A stretch of DNA of 64,000 bases from Octopus vulgaris. Lineage: Eukaryota. Shown piece after piece: positions 38,589-42,352 of this stretch (the stretch's first letter is position 1; each line of letters opens with the position of its first letter). Location: positions 41,602,001-41,666,000 of the forward strand of contig OX597837.1 in NCBI GenBank assembly GCA_951406725.2, written 5' to 3'. Below the pieces are notes generated by a model. The model was not told the origin of the DNA and did no database searches. It worked only from the letters and a program-made list of their open reading frames with translations. A program made the translations under genes and the position numbers.

Positions 38589-38912
38589 TGTAAGCGTGCA
38601 TTAGTCACCCCATCACTGCTTGACAACCGGTGATTGTTTGTTTACGTCACTGTAACATTAGCAACAGAGACCGATCAAATAAGTAACAGATTTCTAAATA
38701 ATGAGTAGTGGGGTCTATTTCTTCAACTATAGCCCTTAAAGGCGGTGCACCAGCATGGCCGATGAAACATCTAAGACGAAAAGATATATTACAACGAGCT
38801 TCTTTTGGGTTCTGAGTTGGAAGAAAATACTTGCCTAAGGTGTCGACGAGCTGGCAGAATGGTTAGCACGCCGGAGAAAATGCTTAGCAGCGTTCCGTCC
38901 GTCTTTATCTTA

Positions 38913-39170
38913 TGGAGGCACGTGACTTAGGGGTTAGGGTTTTAAACTCATGATCGTGAGGTTGTGGTTTCGATTCCTGGACCGGGCGGCGCGTTCTGTT
39001 CTTGAACAAAACACTTCATTTCACGTTGCTCCAGTCCACCCAGCTGGCAAAAAATGTGTAATCCTGCGATGGATCGGGGTCCTGTCCAGGTGGAGGAATA
39101 CATACGCCATGGAAACCGAGAAACCGGCTCTTATGAGTCGGCATGACTCGAGAAGATAACTTTACCTTTA
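38913..39170 (+). mobile_element. tRNA-derived SINE family D
   Basis: tRNA-like head, CACGTTGCTCCAGTCCAC, CCTGCGATGGA..GTCCAGG, tail TTTACCTTTAC; minus-strand homolog at 41745-41968. Confidence 0.7.
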
Positions 39171-40766: not shown

Positions 40767-40846
<80 letters not shown>

Positions 40847-40886
40847 AGATGACAAAGGATTAAATGATTATCTTATGAACTTCACT

Positions 40887-40967
40887 AGCTTACAGCTGTT
40901 TCTGATATAGTATGCGGTAGCGTCATAGTTCAGTACCTGAGTAACACTTTACAGTTTCATCAGAGCC
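40887..40967 (-). ncRNA. Type I hammerhead ribozyme motif with extended domain II
   Basis: Minus strand reads GGCU-CUGAUGA-[~54 nt]-GAAA-CAGCUG-UA/AGCU. Palindromic helix III ACAGCUGU and 4-bp stem I. Confidence 0.65.
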
Positions 40968-41329
40968 TCAACCATGAAGTGCAATTTATTTGAGAAAAGA
41001 AATGCATTTAAACATATGTACAACAAAGTATTGATAATGAGAAAGCATACATGTTTGGGGTTGATATCCACGGCTCCTACCACAATTAGAATAATATTAA
41101 TCCTTCAAGCAAATCAGCTAATTAGAAAATCTCTATAAGAGATGAAAGCAGTAACTGTACAGAGAAGTAATGCTTGTCACCACTTCAGCATGGCTGTTCC
41201 ATAGGAAGCGAAATTACTGCTATTTTTAATCCCAGGAGGACGCCTCCTTCAGCTGGTTATTCGATGTAATCTGCACCCGATATATGTTGCCAGCAGGGGA
41301 GTGAACCCCTATCTTCTAGCCACGATACA

Positions 41330-41374
41330 ACCAGACCGTACGGTTTCGACCTCTTTGTGGTCATCCTCAGTGGT
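41330..41374 (-). ncRNA. Minimal type I hammerhead ribozyme
   Basis: Minus strand reads ACCA-CUGAGGA-U-GACC-acaaaga-GGUC-GAAA-CCGUACGG-UC/UGGU. Core fully conserved, stems I and II paired, 10-nt palindromic helix III, GUC cleavage site. Confidence 0.85.
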
Positions 41375-41674
41375 GGATACTCGCCCGCTAGAGATAGCTG
41401 TAGTTCACTCCAGCTCTCAATATATAGAAAACCAAGCGACACACAGTCACTGGATCTTGCAACAGGCAAATTAGCGAGTTAGGAAATCTCTATAAGAGAT
41501 GAGAGTAATGATGATACTGTTCCGAAGGGAGAGCCATGTTTAAGGGGCGATAAATATTCTTTATCAATATTGTTACTGCTCTCGTAATTTGCTCGTTACG
41601 AGATCAGTGACTGTGTGTCGCTTGGTTTTATACTAATTCTCCGTTTTCATAAATAAAACGCATTTCATGCTTGA

Positions 41675-41990
41675 GGCTCTGATGAAATAGTAAGGTGTTA
41701 CTCAGACAATCAACTATGGGTCTACCGCATGTTATAGTAGAAACCAAACTAAGTTAACTTCTCAGGTTATACCGATTCATAAGGACCAATTTCCCTTTTT
41801 CTATGGCGCATGTATTCCCCGCCTGGACGGGACCCCGGTCCGTCTCAGGATTACTCATTTTTGCCAGGTGAGTGGACTGGAACAACGTGGAACGAAATCC
41901 AAGAATCGAAACCGCAATCTTACTGTCATGAGTTCAACGCCCCTAACCACTAAGCCATCCACCTCCACAAAAGAGGAAACAGCTGTAAGG
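41675..41990 (+). ncRNA. Hammerhead motif (inverted partner of 40887-40967) interrupted by a SINE
   Basis: GGCT-CTGATGA at 41675-41685, GAAAC at 41740-41744, then a SINE, then GAAACAGCTGTAAG at 41976-41989. Confidence 0.6.
41745..41970 (-). mobile_element. SINE family D inserted into hammerhead core
   Basis: Homologous to 38913-39170; flanked by duplicated GAAAC. Confidence 0.7.
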
Positions 41991-42302
41991 TAATGAGGTT
42001 CATATGCTAATCGGTTATTCCTTTGTCGTTTCGTGTTCTTATTACGGCTCTATACGCTTCGTTCAGAATCATGCGTATATTGAGTTCTACTTCAGGTGAT
42101 TTGTATCGTAATGCCTATATATATATATCATGATAGATCGTTAGCCACTACACATATTTTTTTCTCTCCTTGTTTTATCTGTGTCCCTTTCCTTATAAGA
42201 GCGTTGGCTCGAAACGTAAAAGACTCTTTCTATTCCTGAGCGTTATACTAATACATCTGTTTGTTTTGTACACCACCGGTCTTCATCTTGTGTTTTTTTC
42301 GT

Positions 42303-42352
<50 letters not shown>

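Follow-up and report, generated by a model that had tools for sequence, protein, structure and literature searches.

A stack of three repeats at a single locus

The interval 40850-42030 (about 1.2 kb) of the window, i.e. of the whole 64,000-nt stretch of Octopus vulgaris DNA that was analysed, is a stack of three different repeats at a single locus, and these likely came to lie one inside another by successive insertion, in line with the nesting proposed in the first-pass annotation. The three families, namely a likely Penelope-like element (PLE) end (family A), a probable non-LTR retrozyme (family B) and a tRNA-SINE-like repeat, meet at near-single-copy joints, and we regard three successive retrotranspositions at one old site as the likely history, with good confidence. 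Most of the locus is ordinary transposon debris: its motifs are real, their arrangement is known and they are mostly decayed. The families are fresh members of kinds already described, A and B may already sit in the repeat library of PMC13282606, and we infer that the whole locus is likely inert at present. The features are listed in Table 1.

Copies elsewhere were seen through the contigs of four public runs, aligned to 40845-42060 at 80% likeness; the contig-derived figures below refer to those listed, i.e. 40 of 280 variants, 15 of 217 joints and 32 of about 24,600 pieces. Contig depth is not copy number and is used here as a contrast between parts and joints. Run X14 ('RNA?') held diverged family contigs only, with 1 of 868 records at 99% or more, and is uninformative on expression.

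The window is animal DNA rich in microsatellites, with SINEs and other repeats of octopus-like appearance, and microsatellite matches to miRNA models dominate the 150 of 497 Rfam matches listed for it. Within 40845-42310 the sole Rfam match is the hammerhead ribozyme (HHR) of family B at 41330-41374. No Pfam match was found in the 7 frames scanned of the 22 stop-to-stop frames of at least 35 aa at the locus, which agrees with the earlier remark that no protein is encoded there. These 7 frames held no parent PLE ORF (RT or GIY-YIG) of A or B and no ORF combining RT and GIY-YIG of the kind that marks an autonomous PLE; the one long RT ORF scanned in the window (59252-62686) is of the APE/RT-LINE type, not PLE. 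In view of the lack of an RT or GIY-YIG match, the repeats at the locus are classed as remnants and not as an autonomous PLE. Scans of viral sequences with one A motif and one B motif gave 0 matches each. The sole metagenome match to the family A motif (locus L001) was rejected as chance, as it lies in what looks like bacterial coding sequence and lacks both CUGAUGA and helix II.

Table 1. Features of the composite locus (positions in the window)
Feature	Position	Strand	Remarks
Family A left arm	40851-40998	-	Likely PLE 3' end, next to (TA)n/(GA)n; depth of the family persists to ~41008
Degenerate type I HHR, family A left	40887-40967	-	Fails descriptor
Low-copy spacer	41009-41105		X1 depth 12,528 > 379 > 58
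Family B unit	41106-41462	-	357 nt, non-coding, 45% GC; probable non-LTR retrozyme
Intact type I HHR, family B	41330-41374	-	Sole site of the locus passing the descriptor
Family B terminal redundancy	41463-41505	-	37/43 identical to 41106-41148 (direct repeat)
Inverted 5'-truncated B copy without HHR	41520-41632	+	Head-to-head with main copy
Family A right arm, 5' part	41644-41744	+	CUGAUGA 41679-41685, helix II region, first GAAAC 41740-41744
tRNA-SINE-like repeat	41745-41975	-	In HHR core; flanked by 5-nt GAAAC duplication
Family A right arm, 3' part	41976-42027	+	Second GAAAC 41976-41980, palindrome, predicted cut site

Family A arms and their hammerheads

The outer arms had been described as diverged inverted copies, and self-BLAST bears this out, pairing 40898-40998 with 41644-41744 (80%, E 1e-20) and 40851-40902 with 41976-42027 (85%, E 2e-10). 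With the 236-nt insert (41745-41980) left out, the arms align ungapped and are identical at 120 of 148 positions. Both carry GGCU-CUGAUGA and GAAAC-AGCUGUA on opposite strands and pointing outward, as first noted. All three HHR motifs reported for the locus are real, but one of them alone, that of family B, is intact: helix II of the left-arm HHR is broken and the core of the right-arm HHR is split, its halves lying about 290 nt apart.

The left-arm HHR consists of a GGCU/AGCU helix I, CUGAUGA at 40963-40957, a 54-nt helix II region, GAAA from 40902 and the palindrome ACAGCUGU (helix III/loop 3), with a predicted cut after 40891, behind a GUA triplet; this copy is predicted to be nearly inactive. 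A CUGANGA core with GAAA and UH, closed by helix I, is present both here and in the B HHR. Helix II of the left arm has 7 of 11 pairs, the first two next to the core being broken (A.C and C.U); letters found in the family at 40955, 40952, 40905 and 40911 (48-87% of X1 depth) raise this from 7 to 9 of 11 and give a G-C at the base. The right-arm helix II reaches 9 of 11 pairs unaided, with A-U and then U-G at its base, not G-C, and all 11 pairs can be formed with letters seen in one arm or in the family. What the copies, seen as contig letters, speak for is a restoration of pairs by family letters, as distinct from compensatory change. The helix II region (54 nt, at most 11 bp plus loop) is longer than those consulted in the Fig. 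S3 table of PMC4209133; one long helix II/loop 2 is among the entries in PMC8557442 File S2.

Both A arms have an unpaired A before G12. This was considered as a new core variant and rejected, as published PLE tables list such cores: those with an unpaired base before GAA ('agaa', 'tgaa') appear in entries of PMC8557442 File S2, and one AGAAA row, not tied to a species, appears in PMC4209133 Fig. S3. Pairing of the two minus-strand HHRs, A-left and B, as a heterodimer was likewise rejected, as their palindromes do not match.

The depth of family A in run X1 falls from 94,000 and 83,000 in the 3' half to about 12,500 in the 5' half and to 379 and then 58 in the spacer (3' to 5', 94,000 > 12,500 > 379 > 58), as 5' truncation gives. 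Together with the (TA)n/(GA)n run at the left end and the head-to-head arms, this fall matches the PLE insertion pattern, and family A is likely the end of a Penelope-like element. An inverted 5'-truncated copy lies at the 5' end, as in PLEs, the A and B pairs both being head-to-head in the HHR sense. The link to PLEs drawn in the first-pass annotation is supported by the PLE-type HHRs, the palindromic helix III and the inverted pseudo-LTR. The spacer may belong to family A as well, as a more 5' stretch that few copies retain, and by-eye comparison with the loose-end consensus at 40847 indicates that the right arm probably runs about 20 nt beyond the left-arm end, to ~42050. The 19% divergence of the arms points to an old event, which by the octopus calibration in PMC13282606 would date to roughly 25-30 million years ago if the arms arose together.

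Across 40845-40905 in X1, depth over the 3' half of the A HHR exceeds that over the 5' half about sevenfold, with a sharp drop near 40905-40911, which suggests that there is a bigger sister family whose helix II differs.

The family B hammerhead

The third HHR had been noted as unrelated to the other two. It passes the type I descriptor, for which a match of any kind arose in 1 of 300 dinucleotide-shuffled versions of the locus. It comprises a 4-bp helix I (ACCA/UGGU), a CUGAGGA core, GAAA, a 4-bp helix II with G-C (G10.1-C11.1) at its base, an extra U after A9 and a 10-nt palindromic helix III, ACCGUACGGU; the cut is predicted after 41334, behind a GUC triplet. Rfam matches it weakly to the model HH9 (E 0.27, 18.1 bits where the gathering score is 52). 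Beyond an internal loop, helix I may continue as far as 41322/41384, and a letter at 41326 found in 82% of X1 depth restores one distal pair of this helix. By its sequence, the B HHR on the minus strand appears to be the only one at the locus that keeps the complete fold. None of the three HHRs corresponds to the minimum-energy fold of the strand, which is unsurprising if the motifs act as dimers, yet lends no support either.

The family B unit as a probable non-LTR retrozyme

Family B is present at this locus as 1.1 units. The inner inverted pair of the first-pass annotation was confirmed (41425-41478/41581-41632, 87%, E 2e-10), but its extent is larger, as 41520-41583 also matches 41144-41207 at 70% and the inverted copy thus takes up the whole stretch given in Table 1. 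As the inverted copy is 87% alike in one part and 70% in another, two separate insertions may underlie B. A further match to 41123-41310, at 93%, lies at window positions 13485-13672.

In contigs of other copies, single ones span 41118-41404, 41122-41425 and 41224-41452. Back-joints from 41431-41453 to 41106-41135 number at least 8 among the 12 listed of 92 joint rows, a second joint table has at least 4 head-to-tail B joints among the 15 listed of 217, and such joints occur in contigs of X1, X2 and X8. The spanning contigs and the back-joints together imply that B closes as a ring, which at about 357 nt leaves no space for an ORF. Such closure is the layout of animal non-LTR retrozymes, and B is probably one of them: it has a head-to-tail unit within the range of 150-450 bp, a type I HHR, no ORF and a GC content below 50%. 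In the models, 65% of the B ring is paired (z -2.2 in the ribozyme sense and -2.4 in the antisense, 100 shuffles each), so that the ring appears to fold only modestly better than shuffles, and the ribozyme sense no better than the antisense.

The inverted B copy extends 38 nt past the end of the main copy (41463 to 41425 equivalents), which is a single case, and opposite-strand B joints at 41311/41431 occur in at least 3, 2 and 2 contigs in three runs among the joints listed. The head-to-head inverted copy with its 38-nt overrun and these opposite-strand joints are the basis for a further reading, which we offer tentatively and consider rather doubtful as a whole: from its sequence, B could be a non-LTR retrozyme of cephalopods that has not been described before, with a circular, self-cleaving RNA of 357 nt, and its insertions would carry a PLE footprint (an inverted 5'-truncated copy and a tail of about 38 nt).

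A rival explanation of B, to which we give a little less than an even chance, is that it does not propagate itself as a retrozyme but is a gutted PLE or a pseudo-LTR tandem, i.e. a passively copied by-product of a longer parent element. The B HHR is of the PLE type in its extra U after A9 and its palindromic helix III, the fold signal is weak, unit-length variants occur among the joints listed, and no array of several HHRs was found among the contigs listed, where, these being short, two B HHRs in tandem occur in none. However, depth is fairly even over the whole unit (8,000-31,000 over 41091-41459 in X1), the closed 357-nt permutation recurs in contigs of three runs, size, GC content and HHR type match those of mollusc retrozymes, and, in keeping with the HH9 model, helix I goes on past the internal loop and A prevails in loop 2.

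With regard to the retrozyme reading of B, no paper on cephalopod retrozymes or hammerheads beyond PMC8557442 was found in the literature searched, which lies mostly outside subscription journals; the supplement of PMC7229834 may list cephalopod retrozymes. Neither A nor B showed a target-site duplication at the locus.

The stretch 41464-41500 bears a short by-eye resemblance, which could be chance, to the 5' region of Naiad_Ovul/Naiad_Obim as given in the PMC8557442 supplement.

A SINE-like insert in the right hammerhead

The ungapped join of the arms and the GAAAC duplication show that a SINE-like repeat was inserted into the right-arm HHR. Its part 41751-41970 matches window positions 38910-39162 at 77-81% by self-BLAST, and it aligns with three other window copies through a common A/B-box-like head, the box-like motifs being present in the four copies; those at 42352 and 47671 carry this head. 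Its depth reaches 1.4 million in X1, against 37-58 in single-copy stretches. Like tRNA-derived SINEs, the insert is short (about 230 nt), dispersed and very abundant, has a box-like head and is flanked by a short target-site duplication; unlike them, it has no tRNA that ARAGORN could find, and it has no Rfam match either. From the look of its head it is presumably tRNA-derived, and it may be a SINE of the octopus type. Run X8, which carries another organism label, shares the left joint of the SINE, and its contig across 41420-41843 indicates that the SINE predates the split from that organism.

A likely history of the stack

In the history that we favour, family A would have inserted first, beside a (TA)n run, leaving a 5'-truncated 3' end and a head-to-head inverted 5'-truncated copy with the HHRs facing outward. 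Family B would then have landed between the A arms, leaving a footprint of the same kind with an inverted truncated copy beside 1.1 units, probably by borrowing a PLE reverse transcriptase/endonuclease, so that its insertion too would have been PLE-driven. The SINE entered the right HHR core in a further step, before or after B. In the parent families, going by the literature, precursor RNA would be cleaved by HHRs that pair as dimers through their palindromes or are aided by protein. Dimeric PLE hammerheads have reportedly been described by Lunse et al. The minimal HHRs of PLEs are described as cleaving weakly and as dimers, and one PLE has an HHR that depends on the protein of the element and is not required for insertion in vitro (PMC11167929).

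The first-pass annotation had raised the possibility of a hotspot at which such elements insert into one another, i.e. of a favoured site for elements with HHRs. B does lie between the A arms, with a family C HHR remnant next to the locus (42116-42313), and according to one review, in the passages cited, older copies are where PLEs tend to insert, either within them or next to them (PMC6765202). However, 5 of the 6 descriptor sites in the window (one core mismatch allowed) are outside the locus, one family C motif alone has 4 copies, a second outward HHR pair is found at 22303-22901 and further HHR remnants are scattered over the 64 kb. At this density of HHRs chance nesting is to be expected, and a hotspot is improbable.

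Little survives of the proposal that the 1.2-kb structure is one non-coding, ribozyme-bounded unit, mobile as a whole and self-cleaving on both strands. Its symmetric nested layout, the outward HHR motifs at both ends and the absence of Pfam matches would suit such a unit, but the depths do not. The joints in X1 have depths of 58, 120 (centre of the inner inversion) and 125 (B/A joint), and the parts have 8,000-1,400,000; X2 and X8 have the same pattern, with joints near single-copy in all three runs and parts hundreds to thousands of times deeper. Deep parts with near-single-copy joints mean that the composite was not amplified as a unit. The parts are also found apart elsewhere in the window (13485-13672, 38910-39162) and the arms have diverged by 19%. 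Cleavage of both strands is not supported at this locus either, as the sole plus-strand HHR is split by the SINE, helix II of the left HHR is broken and an HHR is absent from the inverted copy of B. The single-unit explanation is thus largely refuted and, in our estimate, very improbable.

The joint at 41105 is bridged by an X2 contig (40941-41147) with 1 difference in 207 positions, and 41420-41843 is bridged by contigs of X1 (4 differences in 424) and X8 (10 and one gap in 426); being near-identical, these contigs indicate that four joints are real and not assembly errors. An assembly artefact behind the nested inversion, to which repeat-rich sequence lends itself and which would fit the lack of a contig spanning the whole stretch among those listed, is therefore negligible in probability, as the arms are 70-87% alike and not identical and near-identical contigs of three runs bridge 40941-41147 and 41420-41844.

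Comparison with known systems

Head-to-head pairs of outward-pointing HHRs are a published signature of PLE insertion. Minimal HHRs on opposite strands lie 100-700 bp apart in PLEs, and in a truncated PLE a second HHR is found on the opposite strand at the 5' end (both from sections of PMC4209133). Compared with the PLE ends described there (Cervera & De la Pena 2014, PMC4209133), the locus is alike in its CUGANGA-H core, short helix I, palindromic 15.2-16.2/loop 3, solo non-coding copies and two HHRs about 720 nt apart on opposite strands; it differs in that no parent ORF was found in the frames scanned at the locus. In the passages of PMC8557442 that deal with EN+ PLEs, these are described as having a (TA)n bias, a 30-40 bp tail at one end and, at the 5' end, an inverted copy that is 5'-truncated. 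With such elements (Hydra, Neptune and Naiad; Craig et al. 2021, PMC8557442) the locus shares the inverted 5'-truncated copy, an HHR near the 3' end and the (TA)n neighbour, and its 3' ends are probably unequal too, judging from one case each in A and B. Ten short motifs from A, B and other window families have no match in the PMC8557442 supplement, where line breaks may hide matches.

Mussel retrozymes have units of 350-390 bp in the portions of PMC7229834 cited. Family B resembles animal non-LTR retrozymes (Cervera & De la Pena 2020, PMC7229834; Li, Clavereau & Pollet 2026, 10.64898/2026.07.22.740005) in its 357-nt head-to-tail unit and type I HHR and in being non-coding with less than 50% GC, and is unlike them in having 1.1 units at the locus plus an inverted truncated copy. 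The main text of the latter paper makes no mention of octopus or molluscs.

Significance

As a composite the locus matters little: precedents for all of its features have been published, and of its three ribozymes two are broken. What offers a useful lead is family B alone, the probable cephalopod retrozyme. Were its retrozyme reading true, cephalopods would join the list of retrozyme hosts. How animal retrozymes are mobilised is stated as an open question in 10.64898/2026.07.22.740005, and the link between PLEs and retrozymes has so far been argued from distribution and phylogeny. If the PLE-footprint reading of B were true, mobilisation of animal retrozymes in trans by PLE enzymes would have direct evidence from structure, and finding the inverted-copy/tail footprint of PLEs at many loci of a retrozyme family would tie retrozymes to PLE enzymes mechanistically.

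HHR families with a long helix II are found at 40963, 22383 and 13095. That at 40963 is missed by Rfam, so that ribozyme counts in such genomes are probably too low.

Other hammerheads and repeats in the window

A second head-to-head outward pair, 22303-22392 (-) and 22847-22901 (+), has the same long-helix-II, palindromic design. The HHR at 22303-22392 has an intact core (CUGACGA), a 13-bp helix II flanked by G and A, a 6-bp helix I and the palindrome ACGGCCGU, and is better preserved than family A; its inverted copy at 22847-22901 comprises the 3' half only and ends near (TA)n. Another HHR-like motif at 13089-13165 (+), with one core change (CCGAAGA), a 45-nt helix II region and the palindrome ACAAUUGU, lies about 390 nt upstream of an HHR-less B fragment (13482-13672).

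The motif of family C, an abundant family with a classic minimal HHR (GAGC/GCUC helix II, GAAACGU), is found at 4143, 10833, 42197 and 46621, i.e. in 4 window copies against 0 in 100 shuffles, with related motifs at 28231-28317 and 54648. The copy at 42116-42313, directly right of the locus, has its first core box mutated.

Several further inverted pairs were seen. Positions 25908-26037 and 26347-26484 form a head-to-head pair (83%) with CUGAUGA outward and no GAAA, which has the 3' motif ATTCCTTTGTCG in common with family A. The pair 9241-9327/10002-10088 encloses 9504-9614/9767-9885 in a nested double inversion in which no HHR was found. Between (TA)n runs lie two 160-nt inverted repeats that are 93% alike (38045-38204/38376-38535), presumably a MITE by their look.

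On the minus strand, 59249-62686 is an open 1145-aa ORF with APE endonuclease, RT and zf-RVT domains, preceded upstream by a low-complexity frame (62725-63633); together they are apparently an intact L1/Tx1-like LINE.
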